Source: a virus
Lineage: Duplodnaviria > Heunggongvirae > Uroviricota > Caudoviricetes
Direction: 5' to 3' (one strand)
IMG/VR virus record: IMGVR_UViG_2541047922_000008
DNA: 18,265 nt
How positions within the stretch are numbered: the first letter of the stretch is position 1; each line of letters begins with the position of its first letter. Both the position numbers and the translations under genes were made by a program. The notes beneath the pieces are model-generated. The model saw nothing but the letters and a program-made list of their open reading frames with translations, was not told where the DNA came from and did not search any database. Shown one piece after another: positions 700-18,265 of this stretch.

Positions 700-1014
700 T
701 CACGATAGTTCCGTTTTGTTGAATTCAATTATATCAAGGTCAGAACTTTCGTAATCCTTACCGAATAAAGCAAAACATATCGCGTCAAGTTCTCTCTTAT
801 GTTTGGACGCCCGATCATAATTACCACCCCAACAGCAAATGAATCCACCAAGTACTGCTGATTCAAAAAGTAATGATGCTGCATCAATATGTCTGAACCA
901 GGAGTCTATAAGTAAAGCAGAGAGTGATATTAATGTTCCCCACCCGCCAATCCTTCTCCATTTCTCAGCTTCATATTTAAGAGAAGCAATATATTCAATT
1001 TTATCTCTCGTCAT
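700..1014 (-). CDS. small membrane protein (104 aa, two predicted hydrophobic helices), last gene of the cargo operon
   Basis: ORF with ATG overlapping the upstream stop (TGATG at 1012-1016). Hydrophobic stretches WGTLISLSALLIDSWF and ASLLFESAVLGGFICCWGG. About 35% GC, versus about 50% for the neighbouring genes. Confidence 0.6.
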   Translation of the reverse strand: MTRDKIEYIASLKYEAEKWRRIGGWGTLISLSALLIDSWFRHIDAASLLFESAVLGGFICCWGGNYDRASKHKRELDAICFALFGKDYESSDLDIIEFNKTELS

Positions 1015-3770
1015 CAGTTCCCCACCGCCTTTCCAAAATCCGGTGCTCTACGTGGCGCAATAGCACCCGGTTCCCACCAACTCGTTATGTCGAACTCCCG
1101 TTGCGAGCGGTCCCTTACTCGATCATTGTAACCAGGGTTTGCCATCTCCTGAAGTTGTTGCAATATCAGGTGATTGGTTATCGCTTTCGCATACCACAGG
1201 TTTGCGAATGGGGTGATCATGCGGGCTGTTTTCAGTGCATCGGCACCGAATGATGTTTCTTCACCCTGTAGAGCCTTCTGTGGGTTAGTAATCAGTAATT
1301 TTGTTAACTGCTCTGCAAAGCTCAACACAGGGCCCCCCATAGTGGCACCGATGCTGGAGCCATATTGCGTATGGTCCTGGAAAATAAAATCACCGTAGAT
1401 ACCGAACGAACCACCTTTCAGTAAAGCCTGAACCCATGTGGTTGGTTTTGTCATATCCAGCGGATCATTACCATTTAACAAACTGTTCATCTGGATCGCA
1501 AACATACCAGCAAGAGTTGTTCCCCCGATATATGAGGCCAGAAATTTAATGGCCGGAACGGTGTCCAAATCCCGTGTTCTGTTAACAAGTTGCCGAAATC
1601 CAGCAAATGGGGTTGTTTTGAAGAGCATGAAGCTCTTCATTAACTCGCCAGCATCATCACGGGCATATGTATCAATACCCGTAGCGGTGGTCACAGCATT
1701 GGTCATCTCACCGTGCGTAATTCCCAGCAATTTCTGGGCTGCTTCAGCGCGTGCATTACGAATCATGCGCGTGATGGTCTGCTCAGCCTCAGCGTCGAAT
1801 GCTTCTTTCATCCGTTTCAGGCGTTCTGGAGGGAGATCTCCAAGGGCTGCCAGTGCCTTTTCACTCCCGGCACGAATCCGGGTAATACGGTCTGCCATAA
1901 TGTCGGCTATTACGTTATCGGGCACAGCGTAAATCGCGTCTGGCGTCATCCCCATATGCCCGGCAGTAGTCATCGGCCTGAGTTCTGCCGCTGCCATGAT
2001 GGCCCAGTCCTCATTGCTCCATCCCTTGTTAGCCAGAATGGTTTTATCGGTTCCTTTCATATCGTCCAGCGTCTTAAATTTTCTGGTCAGCTCGCCAATG
2101 TTTTTGTACATCAGGAGACCAAACGACGCTTTGTTTGCGCGGTCCATAGCGATCAGCCCGGACCACTTCAGTGTCTTCTCTGCGAACCAGCCAGTTATGC
2201 CGCGAGACAAGTCAAACCCGCCCATTTTCGAAACCACAGCAGCATGTGAATCCACCAGCAGACCGAGTTCAGCATTCGCCTTTTTGGCATCTCCACTAAA
2301 CAGGTTTTTGATAGTGTTAACGGAAAGCCGCATTCCACCACGGGTAAAGCCCAGCGCCTGCGCATTTGCCCGCATAATTGCCTGGTCGCTGGTTGCTGTC
2401 AGTACGCTGGTGCCAAGCATGGCGCTGGTCATCAGGTTACGCAGACCACCAACTGCTGAAGAGAACACACTCGATGAAGCGACACCATTTAGGCCAGCCA
2501 TTGAGTTGAACATACGGGCAACTAATTTGGCCTCATCCTCCATTTCTTTTTTGCGTTTCCCGCCTGTTACTGCGCGCTTATAGATGCGATCCAGTACCAG
2601 GGAAAAGTTTCTTTCGGCGTCCGGACCAAAGGCTTTAACGACGCCCAAATCCCTGGATGATGATTGCAGGTGCGACATCATCACCCCCACCAGCGGCTGC
2701 TGAGTGTATCGCTCCATATAGGCGAAGTGTGACTGCGCATCCTTGAACGCCATCACCCTGTGCTGAGAACCACGGCTCTTTATTCCTCCGGCTCCCATAA
2801 ATGTACCAGGCTCAATTTTGTTTGCCCCATCAGTGGCCTTCGTTTCAAAGATCGCTTCCAGTGCCTGACGGTACTCGACGTCATTCATAATGCTGCCGTC
2901 AGGATTAACGTAATTGCTGCGATCCTGCGTGTTGTAAGCGTCATCAACCCATTTCTGGCGGGCAAACTCAATCGGTGGCTGGCGACCTGAAAGACGTGCT
3001 GTAGCTTGCTCTGCCACTGGTAACGATGCCAGCCATTCTTCGCGCCCGGCATTGCGAATAAGGTCAGCATCATCCACATATGGCGTATGCCAGTCTTCTC
3101 GCAGGCCTATGTCAAAGCCATTGTCGTTCATCTCATGACGAACACGGCCTGTTACATCCTTCCAAATCTGTGCAATTTTCTTCGCCAGGGGATTCCCGGT
3201 ATCTTCGCCATATATTTCTTTCAGGATCTGGAGTTGTGCAGACTTTGCCGCCTGCCTGTCGAATACACTCCGAAACCGCTGCTCTCCAAGCGCCCTGCTC
3301 TGCTCGAAGAATTTGCGGACGTCATCACCTGCTTTTAGAAGTTCAGCACTGAGCTGACGGGACCAGTCCTGATATGCCCCAATTGCAAGCTCTTCAGCAG
3401 AAGTAACGGAGATATCAGCTTTGTCTCTCGATCGTCGGCCAGCAAAAATAAACTGCTGCAAATTAACAGGTGTCTGCTGATCAGGCGGGATGTTAGCATC
3501 GAGAGTGTCAGTAATTTTACTGATGGCGATCGCATTCTGGGCAACACGCTGTCTTTTCTTGTACACATCATGAACCACACGCTGGCGAACCAGTTCTGCA
3601 GCATCCATGTATGTTTGAGCATCAGGAATACCACTTTTGCCTTCCATTGCATTCTTTCTGTGCACTTGCCGCACAGCTTCTTTGATACGATCTTCGATAT
3701 TTTTCAGCTCATCAGCCTTTGGCTGGCGACCAAGTGTCTGCGCAATAGCTTCAACACATGCCTGTTTCAT
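1014..3770 (-). CDS. giant protein C (about 918 aa), unknown function, Gly/Ser/Ala-rich hydrophobic central region, no P-loop
   Basis: Long ORF. The ORF track starts at a GTG at 3791; I prefer the ATG at 3770, which overlaps the stop of protein B as TAATG (3768-3772), the same junction as between A and B. No Walker A motif seen. Confidence 0.85.
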   Translation of the reverse strand: MKQACVEAIAQTLGRQPKADELKNIEDRIKEAVRQVHRKNAMEGKSGIPDAQTYMDAAELVRQRVVHDVYKKRQRVAQNAIAISKITDTLDANIPPDQQTPVNLQQFIFAGRRSRDKADISVTSAEELAIGAYQDWSRQLSAELLKAGDDVRKFFEQSRALGEQRFRSVFDRQAAKSAQLQILKEIYGEDTGNPLAKKIAQIWKDVTGRVRHEMNDNGFDIGLREDWHTPYVDDADLIRNAGREEWLASLPVAEQATARLSGRQPPIEFARQKWVDDAYNTQDRSNYVNPDGSIMNDVEYRQALEAIFETKATDGANKIEPGTFMGAGGIKSRGSQHRVMAFKDAQSHFAYMERYTQQPLVGVMMSHLQSSSRDLGVVKAFGPDAERNFSLVLDRIYKRAVTGGKRKKEMEDEAKLVARMFNSMAGLNGVASSSVFSSAVGGLRNLMTSAMLGTSVLTATSDQAIMRANAQALGFTRGGMRLSVNTIKNLFSGDAKKANAELGLLVDSHAAVVSKMGGFDLSRGITGWFAEKTLKWSGLIAMDRANKASFGLLMYKNIGELTRKFKTLDDMKGTDKTILANKGWSNEDWAIMAAAELRPMTTAGHMGMTPDAIYAVPDNVIADIMADRITRIRAGSEKALAALGDLPPERLKRMKEAFDAEAEQTITRMIRNARAEAAQKLLGITHGEMTNAVTTATGIDTYARDDAGELMKSFMLFKTTPFAGFRQLVNRTRDLDTVPAIKFLASYIGGTTLAGMFAIQMNSLLNGNDPLDMTKPTTWVQALLKGGSFGIYGDFIFQDHTQYGSSIGATMGGPVLSFAEQLTKLLITNPQKALQGEETSFGADALKTARMITPFANLWYAKAITNHLILQQLQEMANPGYNDRVRDRSQREFDITSWWEPGAIAPRRAPDFGKAVGN

Positions 3771-5830
3771 TATGGGTTCCTCAAGAAGCACGCTGCCGCT
3801 ACAGAATAAACCTTCGATTCGTTCTGGACTGTCTTAATCTGTTCATCCAACTCAGCCAGGAGATCAGAAAGTTTTGTCGGGTTTCCGGTTTCCGGGTGAG
3901 CTATAGTCAGCTCAGGATTGGCAACAGCCATGTCCCTAGCAGCCATAAGGTCATAGCTGTTGGATGAGAGAACCTGCCCTGTATCTGGATCAACGCTGAC
4001 GTCCCCTCTGTGTTCACCAGCCGATGAGAAAGCACTTTCAGCACGAGGGACAGGCGATTCACTAATTGGCTCTGATGATGTTTCATATCTGACACCATTT
4101 TCTTCAAAAACCTTTTGTATTTCATGGTATTGCTCTTGGTAAGTATCAGATATATCTGATCGCAATGGACCATCAAGCCCTCGCGCCATCCCCCCAACAT
4201 TTACAGGCTGACCATCATTAAGTTGCCTGTATGCTTCATCCATGGCGTCAACATGGCTGTTGATGCTCTCATTGCTGGTGTGAAGCACTGGTGACGATTC
4301 AATATCGTAATGAAGCCCCTCATTCAAAATGTGGGCTGCATCAATATCGCTTGGTTTTATTCTTTCCCTCGCCCGGATACCAAAAACTTTTTCTACTGCG
4401 GCTTCCAGTTTCATATTGCGAAGACGCATACTTACGAGTAACCGTAACTGCTCAGGTGTAACGGTTCCAACCTGAATACCACTGTATCTGAATATATAGG
4501 CTTTAAAACCTGAAATAATTTTTTCCCATGATGAAACGCTTGTCTTTAGAGATGGATTTACTGCATGTGCGGCAACTTCTTCAGCGTACAACCACTCAGG
4601 ATATGTTTCAGGGTACTCACCCCTTTTCTTATATTCATAATATTGTGACATCCCATATGCAAATTCAGGATAGTCAGAATGCTTGTTTGCAGATTTAAGT
4701 ACAGCATTAGCTAGCTTTCTGGCCTTCCAGTCAGGGTAATGGCGCTGCTCAAGATGAAGCGCCTCGTGATGAAGGGTTTCTAACAGTTCTTCATGGTCTT
4801 TTAATCCATTAATATTTATTCTTATTATTGGTTCTTTTCCAGAAGCTACTGTCACATGACCTTTATTCAGAAGTATTTCTCCATCACTATTTTTTATTGC
4901 TGGTTCATTAATAAGTTCTATTACTCCTGAATCAGATAAATCACGAACCATTGACTCAATGTTACCATCAGGAGATTGCTGATAATGTTCACCAAAAGTT
5001 GATTTTATTTCTTCTGCAGAAATGTTCGACTCTGTACCATCATGGTTATTATGGGTAGTCAGGTGATGAACGCCACCAAAGACCCCGCCTAAAACGGCAT
5101 CGACTAACATCGCCTGACCGTCAAATACCCGGTACTGTTTTGCCATCTCCGTGTAGCCTTTTTCCTCCAGTGTTGCGCCGACAGAGTAACGGTTCAGTCC
5201 ACCGAATCCGGTGTTGATTGCCACACCTGAGGCAATGCGCGTTGCCAGTGTGGTGCCGACGGCAGCGGGTAAGGCCATACCCACAGCATTGAAAAGGCTT
5301 TGCTGCGTTGCCAGGTTACGCGCCGTAGCCTCGTCTACTCCCTTCCCTTTAAAATCCTGATAGGACTGCTCATACGTAGAACTGAAAGCTGTAGCAGCGC
5401 CGATGAGGGGACCGCCAAACATAGTTGTTCCGATTGCAGGAACAAATTTACCAAGCTCATTTAATACCTCAGCCGCCATTCCCTGACTGCCTGCATCAGG
5501 CTTCACATAGCTGCGGGCATCCTGTAACTGTTTTCCGATCGTGTCGTATGTATCATTCAGTGTTTTGTCAGCATCAGGGAACATCTCCCGAAAAATATTA
5601 ACAGTCGGTGCCACGTCTGCGGTAAATGCCGGATCGCTAATCAGGCGCTTGCTGAATCCGACGGCAGACTGCGCGAGACCGAGAGTCCCCTCCGCCACGC
5701 CGCTCAAAAGTGCAGTACCTGAACCCTGGAAGGGAGTCGGATCGTAGTCTTCTGGCCTTGCTGGGTTGGCAACTGTTTTGTCGTCAATCCATGCCTGACC
5801 TTCTGGAGCCAAAGAAAAAACATCAGACAT
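3770..5830 (-). CDS. giant protein B (686 aa), N-terminal glycine-rich hydrophobic segments plus a single HExxH zincin-type motif
   Basis: Long ORF whose ATG overlaps the stop of protein A (TAATG at 5828-5832). HHEALHLEQ at residues 354-362 (nt 4745-4771). GxxxG-rich hydrophobic stretches across residues about 120-260. No P-loop. Confidence 0.85.
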   Translation of the reverse strand: MSDVFSLAPEGQAWIDDKTVANPARPEDYDPTPFQGSGTALLSGVAEGTLGLAQSAVGFSKRLISDPAFTADVAPTVNIFREMFPDADKTLNDTYDTIGKQLQDARSYVKPDAGSQGMAAEVLNELGKFVPAIGTTMFGGPLIGAATAFSSTYEQSYQDFKGKGVDEATARNLATQQSLFNAVGMALPAAVGTTLATRIASGVAINTGFGGLNRYSVGATLEEKGYTEMAKQYRVFDGQAMLVDAVLGGVFGGVHHLTTHNNHDGTESNISAEEIKSTFGEHYQQSPDGNIESMVRDLSDSGVIELINEPAIKNSDGEILLNKGHVTVASGKEPIIRININGLKDHEELLETLHHEALHLEQRHYPDWKARKLANAVLKSANKHSDYPEFAYGMSQYYEYKKRGEYPETYPEWLYAEEVAAHAVNPSLKTSVSSWEKIISGFKAYIFRYSGIQVGTVTPEQLRLLVSMRLRNMKLEAAVEKVFGIRARERIKPSDIDAAHILNEGLHYDIESSPVLHTSNESINSHVDAMDEAYRQLNDGQPVNVGGMARGLDGPLRSDISDTYQEQYHEIQKVFEENGVRYETSSEPISESPVPRAESAFSSAGEHRGDVSVDPDTGQVLSSNSYDLMAARDMAVANPELTIAHPETGNPTKLSDLLAELDEQIKTVQNESKVYSVAAACFLRNP

Positions 5831-8361
5831 TATTCAACCCTCACGACAATAGCTTCATTGGTTCTGGGATCTGTTGCCCAGCGTCCGCTACCATTTACCA
5901 GCCGATACCGGTTATTGCCGATATTAACTGGTGTGAAGTTTGACACTGCATTTACGTTAAGTCCGGCTTCTTTCAGTGCTTGTTTCGCAGATGTGGTATA
6001 GCGATCTTTGAAAGTAGATTTATCCATGCCGAAAGGCATTACAACGTCGCCGCCATTAAAATCCTTGTATATACCGCCAGTAGCATACTTCACGGCATCA
6101 GCAACAGTGTCTGTATCAGGCATACTGGTTCTTACCGTAGATGCATCACCTGATTGATAAGCTATTCCTGCGTAAGCGGCTTTGAAAAGGCTATAACTGA
6201 TCTGACGTAACTGCGGGTTACGGGCAAATGCGTTACCTACCTGTTTGTCGAAAGCGTCTTTCATCTTATCTTCGCTCGGCAACTGTACCGGAGTTATGCC
6301 CGCATTCTTCATGGCCTTCGTCGGATTCAGTAGTTGGTCACCGGAAAGAATAACCTTTGCAACGTCGTACTTGTTCATCGTCGGCTTATACCCGATGAAC
6401 TGACTATATGGGATCGACGGTCTGGTGTTATCGTACTGATTATCCGGCGTGCCCAGCAGCAGCGCAGAATAGGCTGTTGCCGCACTGTTCGGAGCAATTA
6501 CAGATGCCACCTGCCGTATTGCTGGCGCAGGCAGCTTCTCCCCCATGCTCTGCAACAGTTTAATTGTCTGGTCAACGTTCTGAGTGCCGCGCACCTGCTG
6601 TGCCAGCGCAGCCGCCTCTTCACTGTTGAGGATTGGGGCATTAATTCCCAACGCGCGTAAGCTTTCCTGCGACGAGAAACGGTTAGCCACCTCGGCAGTG
6701 ATGTCGTCAGGGTTGTTGCTGGTGATCGGCTTATAGGCTCCGATTTCCACCGCTGCACTAAACGGATTATTCTGCCTCTGGGTTATTACCTTCGTGGCTG
6801 CCGCCGATACCCGGTCGAATAACTCCGCACGAGACGCATACCCCTCCCCTGTCTCACCAGTATCCGGGCGTAATTGCTCAACATATGCGGTAATGCTGCT
6901 TGTCGGCATGTTGCGGAAAGAGCCTATATACTGTCCGGCGATCTGCAAATTTCTGAACTCGGTATATCGCAGGTTTCCTTCTCTGACACCATAAGCAGCA
7001 ATGAACTCACCCTCACCAGGCGGGTTAGGAAATTCAACGCCACGCATATACGCAGCCGTTGCATCGCGAACCCGGCTTTCGAGCATCGTTCTATATTCAG
7101 CCTGCTGCTGTCTGGCTAATGCATCCGTCTGTCGCAACACGCTGGCCTGATCTGATTCACTTAAAGCATCGAACCAAGCTACACCGGTATAACGTTTATT
7201 TTTTGTCGGTAGCTGAGAAAGCCCCAGTGCGGCACTAACGCCAGCGGCCAATTGCTGATCACTGTACGGCTGACTGCCTTGCTCATGATGAATAATTGCT
7301 TTGCACAGAGATTTCAGTGTGTCAGGATTTGATGCGTCAAGCGGCTGGTCAGGAGTTACACCGAGCTGAGCACATACTGCCCGTATATAAGCATCAGTTT
7401 TATTATCATCACTGGCCGGTGCCCAGCGATTAATTATTTCGCTGATGGTGTCATAACCCTGACGCTGATACGACAGCAAATTGCGACCAAGCGCGCGAAT
7501 ACCGTGTTCAGGGGTTTCGAATTTGGCAAAGCGACCATCATCACCAGTCTGCCCAACCCACGGATTAGTTTTGCTGTATTCAAGATTGCCGGGGTTATTG
7601 TTGCGTATACCGCGGGTACGATCGGAAGAGCCACTATCTGCTACAGCACGGCGAGATCCAGCAGCAGTATCGCTTAACTCGCCGTTTTGCTGTCTTACCT
7701 GAAGATAGTTTGCTCCAATAGCATTTTGAGCAGTTGCTTTTGCTGTTGCTTCTTTAAACTCGATTTTCTTGGCCTGGATTTGCTCGTCGCTCCAGCCATG
7801 CGCAATACCGTAATCCTCAATTTGCTGGAAAGTTTGCGTATTAGCCAATATGTATGCTGCGTTGTCGCCATATAATGCTGAGGCATTTTTACCATTATTC
7901 AGCAGTGTCGCCTGAAACTGGCCTTCTTCGTAGGCATTTATTTGCCCTATCTCGTACCTCCCGGCCTGCGTAGCGAACTGAATACGCTGCTGCTGCGCCT
8001 GCTGCATGAAAGCATTACGAGCCTGTTCATCCGGCAGCGACATAGCCAGTTGTTCGATCTGAGCATCAAACTGCTGTGTATACTCATGGCCTTTTCCAAT
8101 AGCATTTTTCCCTTTCAGGTTAAGCAATCCTGTTTCAGGATTATTCAGCAGATCACTGCCTGTCTGACTGAGTTTAAGGGATGCCTCCTGAACCAAGGCA
8201 ATATTGGCGCGCTGTTTTGCCTGACCAAGAACATCAATTGCCTCTGTCCCTGCCCGAACAAAAGCATCACCAATACCTGGCTGAGAAAACGTCTGCAAGC
8301 CTGCTGACTGAACTCCACGGCTCTCAACCTGGCGTCCGGATACTGTTGGTACGACTGGCAT
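5830..8361 (-). CDS. giant protein A (843 aa), Q/A/N-rich, unknown function
   Basis: Long ORF with ATG at 8361 preceded by an AGGGGG Shine-Dalgarno. Sharply defined block TRGIRNNNPGNLEYSKTNPWVGQTGDDGRFAKFETPEHGIRALGRNLLSYQ at residues 248-299. No P-loop. Confidence 0.85.
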   Translation of the reverse strand: MPVVPTVSGRQVESRGVQSAGLQTFSQPGIGDAFVRAGTEAIDVLGQAKQRANIALVQEASLKLSQTGSDLLNNPETGLLNLKGKNAIGKGHEYTQQFDAQIEQLAMSLPDEQARNAFMQQAQQQRIQFATQAGRYEIGQINAYEEGQFQATLLNNGKNASALYGDNAAYILANTQTFQQIEDYGIAHGWSDEQIQAKKIEFKEATAKATAQNAIGANYLQVRQQNGELSDTAAGSRRAVADSGSSDRTRGIRNNNPGNLEYSKTNPWVGQTGDDGRFAKFETPEHGIRALGRNLLSYQRQGYDTISEIINRWAPASDDNKTDAYIRAVCAQLGVTPDQPLDASNPDTLKSLCKAIIHHEQGSQPYSDQQLAAGVSAALGLSQLPTKNKRYTGVAWFDALSESDQASVLRQTDALARQQQAEYRTMLESRVRDATAAYMRGVEFPNPPGEGEFIAAYGVREGNLRYTEFRNLQIAGQYIGSFRNMPTSSITAYVEQLRPDTGETGEGYASRAELFDRVSAAATKVITQRQNNPFSAAVEIGAYKPITSNNPDDITAEVANRFSSQESLRALGINAPILNSEEAAALAQQVRGTQNVDQTIKLLQSMGEKLPAPAIRQVASVIAPNSAATAYSALLLGTPDNQYDNTRPSIPYSQFIGYKPTMNKYDVAKVILSGDQLLNPTKAMKNAGITPVQLPSEDKMKDAFDKQVGNAFARNPQLRQISYSLFKAAYAGIAYQSGDASTVRTSMPDTDTVADAVKYATGGIYKDFNGGDVVMPFGMDKSTFKDRYTTSAKQALKEAGLNVNAVSNFTPVNIGNNRYRLVNGSGRWATDPRTNEAIVVRVE

Positions 8362-9030: not shown

Positions 9031-9447
9031 TTAGCCTCCGACTCTTCCGTAGTGCTGTTCTGGTGGATTCACATAGCCCCTTTCTTGCAGGTATTCGCGA
9101 ATATCAGACATCAGGAGACGGTTAACCGTGCTCTTGTCTTTTCTCCGGTAAAGGCGTCTGGTGATCATGAAGTAGTTAGCAATGATCTCCGGTATATCCC
9201 TGACGCTGATACATGCTGTATGCTGGTCAATAGCTTCAATCATCTCTTCACGAGTTACAAAAGTCTGGCGTAAACGAGTGATCACACCATGTACATCTGA
9301 ATGATCATTTATACGCTTATTTTGGCGCTTCGCGCTCTCGACTGTGACACTGACAACAATGTCAACTCTTTGTTTTTCCGCAATTTCATCCACAATGTGA
9401 TCACCTGCACGGCGACCATGTGCGTGATCATTTCTTACTATTTCCAT
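9031..9447 (-). CDS. hypothetical protein (138 aa)
   Basis: ORF overlapping the ProQ/FinO gene stop by 20 nt, consistent with co-transcription. No motif recognised. Confidence 0.5.
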
Positions 9448-13025: not shown

Positions 13026-13283
13026 TTATTTCCCGGTATGGGGTTCTTCTTTATATTTATGGGCTAACAAATCTGGTAATTGCCTGTATTTATCCTCGGC
13101 AATATATTCAGAATAATCGACAGCACTGTTCAGTATATCTAACGCCGTTTCATGCTCCAGATTCGAAACTATAAGGAACGTTGCTACTTTTAGCATATTC
13201 GCGATATGCAAAAGAGCATCAATTTCATTTTTTGGCGCTTCACTGAATTTTTGCTCCAGAAGAATAAATCGTTCATCACGCAT
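13026..13283 (-). CDS. hypothetical protein (85 aa), AT-rich
   Basis: ORF 2 nt upstream of the 100-aa gene. Markedly AT-rich relative to neighbours. Confidence 0.5.
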   Translation of the reverse strand: MRDERFILLEQKFSEAPKNEIDALLHIANMLKVATFLIVSNLEHETALDILNSAVDYSEYIAEDKYRQLPDLLAHKYKEEPHTGK

Positions 13284-13479
13284 AGTATTCCCCCTGACGG
13301 ATGCGGGCAGTAAATACCATCACGCAGCCAGTCGGGGATTGCTGACGGGCTTCCTGTTCGCTGGCGGCCTCGATGTGTATTACGCGTGGTTGTGCGGTGC
13401 TCAGGGCGATAAAACGCCAGATGTATTTATTCAGGTTGTGCGAGTCCCGCCCTTGCGGGTGTGTGGTATGATTTAACAT
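13276..13479 (-). CDS. hypothetical small protein (67 aa), first gene of the leftward replication operon
   Basis: ATG at 13479 preceded by GAGGTAG. It is the 3' part of the 396-aa track ORF, whose upstream part runs through the operator palindromes and antisense to two better-supported plus-strand genes. Confidence 0.35.
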   Translation of the reverse strand: MLNHTTHPQGRDSHNLNKYIWRFIALSTAQPRVIHIEAASEQEARQQSPTGCVMVFTARIRQGEYYA

Positions 13480-13576
13480 AGCTACCTCGATACGCTTTCT
13501 ATCGTTGGTGGTTAGACGCCCTGCATGTGTTGCGAGCACTGCGGGGCGTTGCTTAATTTGAGCAATGCAACCCAAA

Positions 13577-13616
13577 CTGTGCGCACAGATTAAAATCATG
13601 TGTGCGCACATGTCAA
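13577..13616 (-). promoter_or_regulatory. leftward promoter with palindromic operators
   Basis: Perfect -35 TTGACA on the minus strand (13611-13616). It overlaps the perfect 16-bp palindrome CATGTGTGCGCACATG (13597-13612). A perfect 12-bp palindrome CTGTGCGCACAG (13577-13588) lies at the expected transcription start. A half-site TTGTGTGCGCC sits near 13645-13657. The -10 hexamer is weak (TTAATC). Confidence 0.5.
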
Positions 13617-13684
13617 TACTTAACTTCTCACTTTTTTTGCTGTATTGTGTGCGCCCATCAAATCCATTTAAGTGAGGTGTACCA

Positions 13685-13882
13685 ATGTCTAGCGGAAACA
13701 CAAACAACAAATCAGCAAAGAAAAATATTCGATTCCCGCACGAGCTTATAGATGGGATTGATGCCAGTGTTGAACAAGAAAAATTAACTAATCCTAGTGC
13801 TAATTTTTCCGCATGGGTCTTAGATGCCTGTGGACGCAAATTAAAATATGAACAGCGCCGGAAGGCCAAAGAGCAGGAGTAA
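13685..13882 (+). CDS. small ribbon-helix-helix-like DNA-binding protein (65 aa), candidate repressor
   Basis: GAGGTG Shine-Dalgarno 6 nt upstream. NIRFPHELIDGIDASVEQE fits the Arc/MetJ beta-strand plus helix pattern (R-F-P-x-E-L). Transcribed divergently from the operator-bearing promoter. Confidence 0.55.
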   Translation: MSSGNTNNKSAKKNIRFPHELIDGIDASVEQEKLTNPSANFSAWVLDACGRKLKYEQRRKAKEQE

Positions 13883-13939
13883 CCATCACCAGCGCCGTGG
13901 TGCGGTGAACTGTGGCGCACAGGGTTACAGGTATCTACG

Positions 13940-14137
13940 ATGACTGACAAATCATTAAAGAAATTATCCTCATCCAGGAAAAAACAACGCAAAAATGCGG
14001 TAAGCGAACAAGAACAGGAAAGATTTGCGCCATGTGCGTTTGTCCTTGAGAAGTTCTTAAAAGAGTACAGGCGCACAAAAATGGAATCGCATACCTGGAA
14101 AACATCGCAGTATGGCGATGCTAAAGAGCAGGAATAG
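13940..14137 (+). CDS. small basic protein (65 aa), hypothetical
   Basis: ORF with a weak Shine-Dalgarno. Its last codons and the about 15 nt after the stop repeat the 3' end of the upstream small gene. Confidence 0.4.
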   Translation: MTDKSLKKLSSSRKKQRKNAVSEQEQERFAPCAFVLEKFLKEYRRTKMESHTWKTSQYGDAKEQE

Positions 14138-14227
14138 CCCACCAGCAAGCCAGCACACTGATCACATTGCCCACCAGCCGCAAATCTGGCATTGTTGGCG
14201 ATGCGTTTGATTTCCTTTGTTCCCACT

Positions 14228-14255
14228 GGCGACCTATCCCGGTCGCCTTTGTTTT
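14228..14255 (+). terminator. intrinsic terminator for the plus-strand small-gene transcript
   Basis: GGCGACC-TATCCC-GGTCGCC hairpin (14228-14247) followed by TTTGTTTT. No T-run on the minus strand. Confidence 0.5.
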
Positions 14256-14305
14256 GCCTGTTATCCAGCAACGGGGCGCTTTTTCTTTCTGTAACGTTCG
14301 GATCG

Positions 14306-14863
14306 TTACACATTGCTTTCACCCTCCAGAAAATCAGGCTGATATTTACGCCATAGCGCCCGCTCTTCTCGTTCCAGTGCATCTTTTGCCTCTTTGCATT
14401 GCTGTAACCTGTAACCGCGTTTGCTGGCTTCCTGTTGATATGCAGCCTGACGTTTACTGAAATCATTCAGCATGGCAAACGGAACACCATAACCCCCCGT
14501 TTTGCGGATTGAAGGAATCACCTCGCGGAATACCCAGTTACTGAAACGGTGCGCAAATGTGCCTGGTGTGGAAGCTTTACGGCTGCGGGCGATCAGTTTG
14601 TAGAAACCTGATTCAGAGACAACATTCCAGCTTCTGGCACCACCACGCTTACCGGAATGACCCTCGGTTAAAGCTAGGGTCATTACCTCATCGTTATCCA
14701 GAACTGAAACGGCATCAGTAACATTGCTGATTTCCAGCGCGGCACACACATCAGCGCCAACAAACCACGGCTCGCCGTTGATACTCACTATGCGCACCTG
14801 AATGTCATCGAATTTAATGACAGAGATTTCAGTGCGACCAGCATAAAAGACAGGTTTACGCAT
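14306..14863 (-). CDS. Bro-N domain protein (phage antirepressor family)
   Basis: VIKFDDIQVRIVSINGEPWFVGADVCAALEI matches the Bro-N signature. 8-nt overlap with the upstream gene. Confidence 0.8.
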   Translation of the reverse strand: MRKPVFYAGRTEISVIKFDDIQVRIVSINGEPWFVGADVCAALEISNVTDAVSVLDNDEVMTLALTEGHSGKRGGARSWNVVSESGFYKLIARSRKASTPGTFAHRFSNWVFREVIPSIRKTGGYGVPFAMLNDFSKRQAAYQQEASKRGYRLQQCKEAKDALEREERALWRKYQPDFLEGESNV

Positions 14864-16928: not shown

Positions 16929-17050
16929 ACCTCAGCGTCCTCTACTGTAGTGGCTGTGCCAGCCCGTCGAGGTATACGGTTTTTCGGGAGCGACCCTAGA
17001 CACAGCCTTTTCTTTCGTCGCTCAAAGTCTACTACTGTATACTCAACCAG

Positions 17051-18265
17051 TCATCCACATTTTCCGAACTTGCCATGCACCACGTTGCCGCCCTGTTCCA
17101 GTGAGTCCATATAGTCGGCGTACCACTGGAGCATCTCGCGCCGCCCGTCCAGATATTGCGCATGATTGTACGTGCCACGAATTGAGTTCTTATCAACGTG
17201 TGCAAGCTGCGTTTCTATCCACGCGGTGTTATAGCCCTGCTCATGTAAAATCGTGCTCATCGTGTGCCGGAACCCATGACCAGTAACGCGCCCAGAATAG
17301 CCAATACGACGAATAAGCACGTTCATCGCCATTTCACTCATCGGCTTACTGTGCTGGATTCGACCAGGGAAAATAAACTGATACTGCCCCGTCATGTGTT
17401 TTAACTGTTCCAGAATAGCGATCGCCTGTTCTGAAAGCGGCACACAATGAGGACGGCGCATCTTCATTCGTTCTTTAGGCACTTCCCACAAACGATTATC
17501 AAAATCGATCTCCTGCCATTCTGCCTGTCGTAATTCCCCTGGCCGGAGCCCTGTCAGAATCAATAATCGCATACCCAGCTTGACGATCTGGCTTCCGGTG
17601 TACGTATTAAGAACGCGGAAAAATTCCGGCAGTTCGTCGGCCTTCAAATAGGCATAATGCTCTTTTTTGTGTGGAGCAAATGCGCTTGCCAGATCTGGTG
17701 CGGGGTTATATTCAGCGCGTCCGGTGATGATTGCGTACCGGAACACCTCGCCGCATCGCTGGCGAACCTTACGCAATTTTTCGGTCGCCCCACGGTCATT
17801 AAGACGGGAGAGAACCGCAAGCAACTCCATTGGCTTAATTTCTGCGATCGGCCTGCCGCCAATGTACGGAAAAACGTCTTTTTCAAACGTCTCGATCATT
17901 TCCTCGGCGTATGACGATGACCACCTGTCGATCCGCTTTTCATACCATTCGCGAGCGATACCCTCAAAAGTATTGCCAAATTTGCTCGCCTGTTCTCGCT
18001 TTTGAGCTTTTCTGGCCTCACTTGGATTTATACCACCAGCAAGAAGCCTTTTAGCCTCATCCCTTGCCGCTCTGGCATCAGACAGAGACACATCAGGGTA
18101 CACGCCCAACGACAACATTTTGGGCTTTCCTGCAAATCTGTAACGTAGTCGCCACCCTTTCGAGCCGTTCGGCTCAATGAGTAACGAAAGCCCGTTACCG
18201 TCATTGAGTGTATAAGCCTTTTCTTTCGGCTTCGCGCGCCTGATAGCAAGGTCTGAAAGCAGCAT
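17051..18265 (-). CDS. int: tyrosine recombinase, P4-type integrase
   Basis: N-terminal arm-binding pattern LSDLAIRRAKPKEKAYTLNDGNGLSLLIEPNGSKGWRLRYRF. Catalytic-domain residues GLRPGELRQ, HGFRHT and the tyrosine in RGTYNHAQY. The ATG is the last three bases of the window. Confidence 0.9.
   Translation of the reverse strand: MLLSDLAIRRAKPKEKAYTLNDGNGLSLLIEPNGSKGWRLRYRFAGKPKMLSLGVYPDVSLSDARAARDEAKRLLAGGINPSEARKAQKREQASKFGNTFEGIAREWYEKRIDRWSSSYAEEMIETFEKDVFPYIGGRPIAEIKPMELLAVLSRLNDRGATEKLRKVRQRCGEVFRYAIITGRAEYNPAPDLASAFAPHKKEHYAYLKADELPEFFRVLNTYTGSQIVKLGMRLLILTGLRPGELRQAEWQEIDFDNRLWEVPKERMKMRRPHCVPLSEQAIAILEQLKHMTGQYQFIFPGRIQHSKPMSEMAMNVLIRRIGYSGRVTGHGFRHTMSTILHEQGYNTAWIETQLAHVDKNSIRGTYNHAQYLDGRREMLQWYADYMDSLEQGGNVVHGKFGKCG

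Follow-up and report, generated by a model that had tools for sequence, protein, structure and literature searches.

A repeated gene end at the ylcI locus

The window analysed here is the IMG/VR virus record IMGVR_UViG_2541047922_000008, a stretch of 18,265 nucleotides (nt) assigned to the Caudoviricetes. Two small genes lie next to each other on its plus strand. The first open reading frame (ORF1) is ylcI, which encodes a protein of the YlcI/YnfO family. The second (ORF2) encodes a basic, helical protein. Both genes end in the same five codons, and the similarity continues beyond the stop codon (Table 1). Behind them lie a 3' untranslated region (UTR), which is common to related islands, and a terminator. 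We argue that this repeated gene end is probably a recombination joint, located at a module boundary of a mosaic island that resembles a phage satellite.

Copy 1 of the repeat reads GCCAAAGAGCAGGAGTAACC-AT-CACCAGC, and copy 2 reads GCTAAAGAGCAGGAATAGCC-CACCAGC. When the two are aligned in codon register, 17 of 20 positions are identical (13865-13884 against 14120-14139). A 2-nt indel follows (AT in copy 1), after which all seven positions of CACCAGC agree. The exact common core, AAAGAGCAGGA, is 11 nt long (13868-13878 and 14123-14133). From core to core the distance is 255 nt, or 85 codons.

We confirm that the repeated gene end is real and not a product of chance. The degenerate 20-mer GCYAAAGAGCAGGARTARCC has two sites in the whole window, even if up to two mismatches are allowed, and these are the two repeats. 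For 200 shuffles of the window the expected number of matches is 0.00, and none of the 200 contains two or more. The first-pass annotation of this DNA had reported both repeated strings, and we find them where it placed them. It was also right that both genes end in AKEQE and that the repeat extends past the stop, but the ending comprises five codons, not four. As far as the tools can detect, its description of the two ORFs as otherwise unrelated is correct: when the profiles of the ORF2 family and the YlcI alleles are compared, the 7-residue tail alone aligns. A second match, of 15 out of 17 nt, joins the 5' ends of the two ORFs (13707-13723 and 13947-13963). This match is ambiguous, with a chance probability of about 0.01 by rough estimate. 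The tail of copy 1 is seen in all sampled Escherichia ylcI alleles, with synonymous variation.

Table 1. Features at the ylcI locus and in the rest of the window (aa, amino acids).
Feature	Position	Strand	Description
ORF1, ylcI	13685-13882	+	65-aa YlcI/YnfO protein (DUF3950, NF041551)
ORF2	13940-14137	+	65 aa, basic and helical, "long" form; facultative cassette between the two repeats
Repeat copy 1	13865-13893	+	Last five codons of ylcI (A K E Q E), TAA stop, CCATCACCAGC
Repeat copy 2	14120-14146	+	Last five codons of ORF2 (A K E Q E), TAG stop, CCCACCAGC
Spacer hairpin	13893-13917	+	CGCCGTGGT...ACTGTGGCG; between ylcI and ORF2, outside the repeat proper
Second exact Chi	14171-14178	-	In the common 3' UTR, 32 nt beyond the Chi of copy 2
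Intrinsic terminator of the ylcI-ORF2 transcript	14228-14256	+	GGCGACCTATCCCGGTCGCC then TTTGTTTTG
Divergent control region	13577-13657		Three allele-specific palindromic sites overlapping two promoters read by eye
Icd-like gene	13276-13479	-	First gene of the leftward replication operon; NCBIfam phage_ICD_like covers the last 48 residues only
int-alpA RNA motif	16939-17006	-	RF02996, 46.9 bits (gathering score 35.8); located between the integrase and the next gene

The tail and the block downstream of ylcI

To place the repeat in its context, we compare about 99 island loci with 31 ylcI bodies, taken from E. coli genomes and from IMG/VR, where related islands are present. Our scan of genome contigs yielded only 17 loci, as it includes a single E. 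coli genome; the diversity within the species is therefore taken from the E. coli genomes and IMG/VR.

Identity between the window and the island of strain C5 (locus L004) is about 40% over positions 13545-13855 and 96-100% from position 13860 on. Compared to another island (L005), both flanks are 100% identical, and the control sites, ylcI and ORF2 are replaced between them. In many E. coli matches the alignment starts at query position 234, or position 13853 of the window. Escherichia ylcI alleles that are less than 40% identical to each other all end in QRRKAKEQE. Outside Escherichia, members of the same ylcI allele family have other tails (..KAKEEPKG, ..KKPKE or ..KEQPK) and no ORF2. The tail thus belongs to the downstream block: it travels with that block and not with the ylcI allele. 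The pattern is that of an immunity-type module swapped between conserved flanks.

The slot behind ylcI is filled differently in related islands

A single YlcI protein (WP_000201462.1) occurs, in identical form, with three different contents of the slot between ylcI and the common 3' UTR. The slot of strain AVS0542 (L002) is empty. Strain C5 (L004) has a long ORF2 with repeats on both sides, as in the window. Strain 2A (L028) has a short ORF2, which stops just before the tail, and one repeat. More than one slot state is found for 6 of the 31 ylcI bodies.

The empty junction reads GCC AAA GAG CAG GAA TAG CCCACCAGCAAGCC, so that its left part is that of copy 1 and its right part that of copy 2. 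GAA-TAG-CCCACCAGCAAGCC directly follows ylcI in islands without ORF2 (for example L002 and L003). An in silico deletion between the two cores of L004 yields L002; in the 180 nt before the junction and in the first 55 nt after it, the two differ at 4 positions in each case. We show in this way that recombination inside the 11-nt core would account exactly for the islands without ORF2.

What follows the tail also varies. Tails of ylcI run into one of three sequences (the hairpin spacer, the CCCACCAGCAAGCC flank or the CCCCACCGGAA flank), and tails of ORF2 run into the same three. The stop codon is linked to the flank: TAA occurs with the spacer, and TAG occurs with the CCCACCAGC flank in all cases but one. 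A GCC codon marks ylcI, and GCT or GTT marks ORF2. Together, the linkage of stop and flank and these codon marks place the crossovers inside the identical core. In homologous islands the repeat does mark cassette boundaries. The proposal of the first-pass annotation that it is a recombination scar from the modular exchange of small genes is backed by the hybrid empty junctions and the reassortment in related islands.

ORF2 is not the only occupant of the slot. In one locus (L058, 14051-14725 on the reverse strand of the stored locus) ylcI is followed by an ORF2 ending in VEEQK and by a third gene of 60 aa (ORF3), and the tail, stop and spacer lie behind each of the first two genes. ORF3 carries the motif ECFLLEDFIKK, which is reminiscent of the ORF2 core. 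In another locus (L036, about 9148-9360) an unrelated 50-aa lipoprotein-like ORF (MPKLKNCALCAIVLIVAAFILKSC..) stands behind the same spacer. The gene in the ylcI position can change too: E. coli O157:H7 TX 265-1 (L183, 1320-1724) has a 57-aa Arc-like protein there, with a weak Pfam Arc match. This gene has GGTAATTACC palindromes upstream and no AKEQE tail, and the same spacer and a short ORF2 lie downstream. The Arc-like gene and its ORF2 are unannotated, and the region is labelled an Icd-like pseudogene. The terminator is kept in related islands regardless of the slot occupant.

ORF2 fits a real protein under purifying selection, with a ratio of nonsynonymous to synonymous substitution rates (dN/dS) of about 0.23-0.46. 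In a 90% cluster database it accounts for 38 clusters, of which 37 are from E. coli and one is from E. albertii. The protein falls in PHROG 21027 (function unknown) and matches nothing in Pfam, NCBIfam or PADLOC. A profile search of 1.84 billion representatives returns 14 relatives, all small and uncharacterised. The conserved centre of the protein is ERFAPCAF.LEKFLKEY. Its AF2 model shows two helices, but with a pLDDT of 66.6 the confidence is too low to support a fold search, and a sequence search of the PDB returns nothing significant for ORF1 or ORF2.

ORF2-like DNA is present in 1,284 of 5,426 complete E. coli genomes. In 175 of the 5,426 the match covers at least 80% of the query, our proxy for a long ORF2 with the second repeat. 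About two thirds of the sampled ORF2 genes have the short form without the tail, ending in ..EPD or ..KSD. PGAP leaves this short form uncalled in 4 of the 7 short-form genomes inspected. ORF2-like genes are also found without ylcI nearby.

A control region that changes with ylcI

ORF1 belongs to the YlcI/YnfO family by both family models (Pfam 28.3 bits, cut-off 25; NCBIfam 59 bits, cut-off 30). YlcI alleles are 59-101 aa long. The predicted structure of ORF1 is ribbon-helix-helix-like (RHH-like), and the second helix runs through the tail. A literature search on YlcI/YnfO turned up nothing on function. The 101-aa alleles (L024, L027 and many IMG/VR loci) contain an in-frame insertion that repeats helix 2 and the tail (..GFIVTAMRGEIARRQ.. 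then ..GQLVTVAREELQRRKAKEQE). The end of ylcI has thus been duplicated or extended at least once more.

Upstream of ylcI lie three palindromic control sites, TGTGCGCACA at 13578-13587 and 13601-13610 and TGTGCGCCCA at 13648-13657. They overlap two divergent promoters, which we read by eye from conserved positions. The putative rightward promoter consists of TTAACT (13620-13625) and TATTGT (13643-13648). The putative leftward promoter consists of TTGACA (complement of 13611-13616) and TTTAAT (complement of 13589-13594). A consensus promoter scan of 13200-14500 gives no sigma-70 site at its thresholds.

Every ylcI allele examined has its own three GTG-N6-7-CAC sites at fixed positions: one just past the rightward -10, one in the spacer of the leftward promoter and one at the start of the leftward promoter. 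They resemble a family of repressor-operator specificities. No protein except YlcI is coded entirely inside the allele-specific block (about 13545-13855). Because of this, and because the sites are allele-specific, YlcI is probably the repressor of the island, acting on the control sites.

Among the control sites of other alleles are GGTGTTGAACACC, GGTGTATTTCACC and GTGTCAGCCAC. Allele-specific sites span Escherichia, Serratia, Klebsiella, Gilliamella and Xenorhabdus (loci L002-L028, including L006-L016). The spacer behind ylcI holds AACTGTGGCGCACAG (13910-13928), which equals AACTGTGCGCACAG of control site 1 (13575-13588) except for one inserted G. The same spacer variant accompanies other ylcI alleles (L004, L028).

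Chi sites in and behind the repeat

The part of the repeat beyond the stop, CCACCAGC, is the complement of Chi (GCTGGTGG). Exact Chi octamers lie on the minus strand in copy 2 (14139-14146) and in the common 3' UTR. The last 8 nt of copy 1, TCACCAGC, are the complement of Chi with one mismatch. At least one CCACCAGC is kept in 41 of 42 distinct segments between the ylcI stop and the terminator, and none of these segments has it in the opposite orientation. In one pair of islands homology breaks right after the second Chi. We do not accept Chi as the direct cause of the ORF2 indel: such a link is unproven, and the polarity of Chi is directed away from ORF2.

Chi is frequent in these islands as a whole. 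The window has 12 sites in 18.3 kilobases (kb), 9 of them on the minus strand, compared to 0.66 expected from shuffles. Related island loci (L032-L182, about 1.08 Mb) have about 0.9 Chi per kb. In locus L001 the island part has 0.74 per kb, compared to 0.10 per kb in the adjoining 9.9 kb of chromosome. The E. coli average is about 0.2 per kb. The enrichment may in part be due to codon usage on the minus strand. Within the island, Chi could act as a stimulator of recombination or as a shield against RecBCD.

A model of exchange through the gene end

In our model, copy 1 is the 3' end of ylcI. Its tail, made up of the codons RRKAKEQE, the stop and some further bases, is in Escherichia a part of the conserved downstream block and not of the allele-specific gene body. 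Copy 2 is the same tail with an exact Chi, and it ends the optional ORF2 in a variable slot ahead of the Chi-bearing 3' UTR and the terminator. Related islands that reside in the same cell, or that newly arrive, would exchange DNA via homology of the tail, the spacer and the 3' UTR. Such exchange would reassort ylcI alleles with slot contents: nothing, a short ORF2, a long ORF2, ORF2 with ORF3, or an unrelated small ORF. In the resting island ylcI and ORF2 would be co-transcribed from the ylcI promoter. YlcI would control its own promoter and the divergent icd-primase promoter, and ORF2 would be an accessory, moron-like passenger.

The simplest chain of events would begin with a long ORF2, with its own tail and CCCACCAGC flank, sitting behind ylcI. 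Recombination between the two tails would then remove ORF2 and leave empty sites. The short form would stem from the loss of 39 nt that comprise the second tail and its flank. In the founding event the repeat may have come first and allowed deletion, or it may have arisen by insertion.

Several points weigh against a recombination joint. With an exact core of 11 nt, or about 27 nt if imperfect matches are included, the repeat does not exceed the minimum length that efficient RecA-dependent exchange usually requires. ORF2 may therefore have been deleted by slippage and not by homologous recombination. Given the polarity of RecBCD, Chi in this orientation would be expected to promote exchange on the right of 14146 and not within ORF2. 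Distant ORF2 relatives elsewhere end similarly (GAT GCT AAA AAG CAG AAA TAG in L029). Together with the KAKE-type ylcI tails in other genera, such endings suggest that the tails were perhaps alike before they became neighbours; their similarity may be partly old or protein-driven, and not a recent scar. The co-transcription of the two genes and the putative repressor role of YlcI are read from the anatomy of the locus. Finally, the island sample is biased by the search patterns and includes near-duplicates, and its counts are unaware of phylogeny.

The model can be taken one step further. The linker of tail, stop, Chi or Chi-like octamer and hairpin might be a selected, Chi-armed and portable docking sequence, and the slot an integrase-free cassette array behind a repressor gene. 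ORF2, ORF3 and the lipoprotein-like ORF would then be added, removed and stacked by host RecBCD and RecA between co-resident satellites, and the high Chi density of the islands would be part of the same strategy. We consider this extension unlikely.

Alternative explanations for the repeat

Selection on the protein could keep the tail, for example as a contact to a common partner, as a turnover signal or as a contact to DNA or RNA. The identity of the DNA would then be a by-product. In line with this idea, the ylcI tail always encodes QRRKAKEQE although its third codon positions vary, the second helix of the YlcI model extends through the tail, and ORF2 relatives with at most 50% identity, in unrelated contexts, have tails rich in K, E and Q (DAKKQK, DDKQWE, PKKQEQ). 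However, the similarity runs past the stop (CC..CACCAGC), and the empty sites are exact hybrids of both copies. Moreover, two thirds of the sampled ORF2 genes do without the tail, and ORF2 tails tolerate changes from A to V, I or T and from EQE to EQK. Selection on the protein is thus an improbable source of the repeat; it could nevertheless be compatible with recombination.

Alternatively, ORF2 could be a tandem duplicate of ylcI, a unit of 255 nt that has diverged except at both ends. However, hhalign aligns only the seven tail residues between the ORF2 family and YlcI alleles, which does not bear out ORF2 as a diverged copy of ylcI. The ORF2 model has two long helices and no RHH strand motif. 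The ORF2 core (F.LE.FLK..RRTK.G..TWK) is joined to at least four unrelated N-termini and is also present at loci that lack ylcI, and the islands of O157 have the same spacer and ORF2 behind a gene that is not ylcI. It is true that both ORFs have 65 codons, that the period is a whole number of codons and that the 5' parts resemble each other (NKSAKK and DKSLKK), but this resemblance is confined to one N-terminal variant of ORF2. The near copy of control site 1 in the spacer and the internal repeat of helix 2 and tail in long YlcI alleles would also fit a duplication. All in all, we regard a duplication as quite unlikely, and as a weaker account than the chain that starts with a long ORF2 and proceeds by deletion.

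The first-pass annotation also listed a processing or binding site, a shared translational element and a toxin-antitoxin or repressor/anti-repressor unit. A translational element is unsupported: no start codon lies at coupling distance after either copy, as ORF2 starts 57 nt past copy 1 and no ORF follows copy 2. If the repeat were an RNA signal that ends each cistron (a processing site, a protein site with GGA in CAGGAG and CAGGAA, or a target of a small RNA), this would explain its identical placement relative to both stops, and the island does code for an RNA-binding protein of the ProQ/FinO family. A hairpin is conserved behind copy 1 in many islands, ahead of different cassettes. Yet this hairpin lies outside the repeat and is absent after copy 2. 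RNAalifold predicts 9 pairs and -11.8 kcal/mol for 16 spacer variants; the changes are one-sided, and none is compensatory. Folding does not differ from shuffles, neither for copy 1 with the spacer (z = -0.23) nor for copy 2 with the 3' UTR (z = -1.5). At the gathering score, Rfam finds only the int-alpA RNA in the whole window, and at E-values up to 10 it finds only chance-level matches in 13100-14500. The antisense RNAs of P1 (c4) and P4 (CI; Rfam C4, isrK) are absent from the window at the gathering score and from 13100-14500 at E-values up to 10. Since short-form ORF2 genes and the O157 islands do without the repeat as well, we find no support for a processing or binding site and think an RNA signal very unlikely.

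We give just as little credence to a toxin-antitoxin pair, in which an RHH antitoxin would be joined by a small toxin, or to a repressor/anti-repressor pair. The latter is half plausible, in that ORF1 does resemble a repressor, but nothing shows ORF2 acting on ORF1. ORF2 is facultative: it is absent beside identical ylcI alleles and in other genera, and ORF2-like genes stand alone elsewhere. The two ORFs neither overlap nor abut, being separated by the 57-nt hairpin spacer, and neither matches a Pfam toxin family or PADLOC. The control sites would put YlcI over the icd-primase promoter, which fits the repressor of an element and not an autoregulated toxin-antitoxin operon.

The island around the repeat

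The window matches E. coli chromosomes, and in strain 82.0311 the island lies beside a tRNA-Gly gene. The only recombinase found is a tyrosine integrase that targets tRNA-Gly (17051-18265). On the minus strand the integrase is followed by the int-alpA RNA motif, AlpA, AntA and a BRO-N protein. Further left on the same strand are the Icd-like gene, a small hypothetical gene, DUF4222, a DUF927 primase, SSB, a ProQ/FinO protein and PerC. A large unannotated operon is also located on the minus strand. ORF1 and ORF2 are the only plus-strand genes here, divergent from the Icd-primase operon and convergent on the BRO-N gene. The window contains, in order, the zones of integrase with AlpA, Bro, and primase with SSB. 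Its gene order fits the four-zone plan of Gram-negative phage-inducible chromosomal islands (PICIs; PMC10111431), and we describe the island as phage-satellite-like.

The true start of the Icd-like gene is probably the ATG at 13479, which is preceded by GAGG; RefSeq extends the gene to 13611. Its annotated N-termini vary between genomes. An open frame of 396 codons (13276-14466, minus strand) lies antisense to ORF2 and ylcI and continues into the icd-like gene; it is probably a shadow frame. "Icd-like" proteins in RefSeq have very different N-terminal extensions from genome to genome, or are pseudogenes overlying ORF2.

Just upstream of the icd-like ribosome-binding site (about 13480-13550, minus strand) lies a conserved RNA leader with two hairpins and an invariant CUAACCA(C)CAACG between them. 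Six of its base pairs show compensatory changes (11 loci, five genera), and it has no Rfam match. It could be an immunity or attenuator RNA, at the place where P1 and P4 have theirs.

At the cargo end of the island, four overlapping minus-strand genes (843, 686, 925 and 104 aa) form an operon (700-8361) that is hypothetical in RefSeq. None of its products has a Pfam or PADLOC match. It is a candidate defence or accessory system.

Similar systems

In lambdoid phages, immunity regions are replaced as allelic repressor-operator modules between conserved DNA, as described by the modular theory of phage evolution. At the ylcI locus, too, a small protein predicted to bind DNA and its cognate repeated sites are replaced as a unit, and the right flank starts at the last codons of the gene. 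In contrast to the HTH repressors of the cI type, YlcI is RHH-like, small and a putative repressor.

The slot also resembles an integron. Small promoterless genes of varying identity and number stand behind a fixed promoter, with a recurring separator that bears a hairpin. However, there is no IntI-type integrase, only the tyrosine integrase, and an inspection of the alignment shows that none of the 16 linker variants contains the attC core GTTRRRY. The junctions are inside coding tails, and nothing points to site-specific recombination. We therefore rejected an identity with integron cassettes and attC.

Temperate phages have short conserved boundary or linker sequences at mosaic junctions, and the closest parallel we found is a case of this kind in mycobacteriophages. 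Genes 67 and 68 of Island3 end in the same 18 codons, a match of about 50 bp, and Brujita lacks gene 68 (PMC3029335). This has been attributed to recombination at boundary sequences, either by deletion within one genome or by exchange between genomes (PMC3029335). As in Island3, adjacent and otherwise unrelated genes have their last codons and the DNA encoding them in common, and the second gene is optional. In contrast to Island3, the repeat is shorter here (11 nt exact and about 27 nt imperfect, compared to about 50 bp) and runs past the stop into Chi. There are also many islands and several slot occupants, and the host of the repeat is a satellite-like island and not a phage.

Gram-negative PICIs are generally described as activated by AlpA (PMC10111431, PMC11773190). 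The island shares with them the integrase and AlpA, a Bro-N/AntA zone, a replication zone with primase and SSB, and a variable late or cargo zone. It differs in that no capsid or packaging genes are recognised in the window. A ylcI/ORF2 unit at the boundary between Bro and replication is not described in the PICI literature examined.

Significance

The repeat is a known kind of feature, a product of ordinary gene shuffling, and it reveals no new mechanism. The side observations may prove more valuable than the repeat: the control sites, the icd leader RNA, the Chi enrichment and the cargo operon. For annotation, the repeat marks a variable slot of small, mostly unannotated genes behind a probable repressor, and it shows the tail of ylcI to be part of the downstream module. 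For the biology of these elements, it is a population-backed example of how short sequences at gene ends may let small genes enter and leave mobile elements, in a satellite family carried by about a quarter of the complete E. coli genomes.

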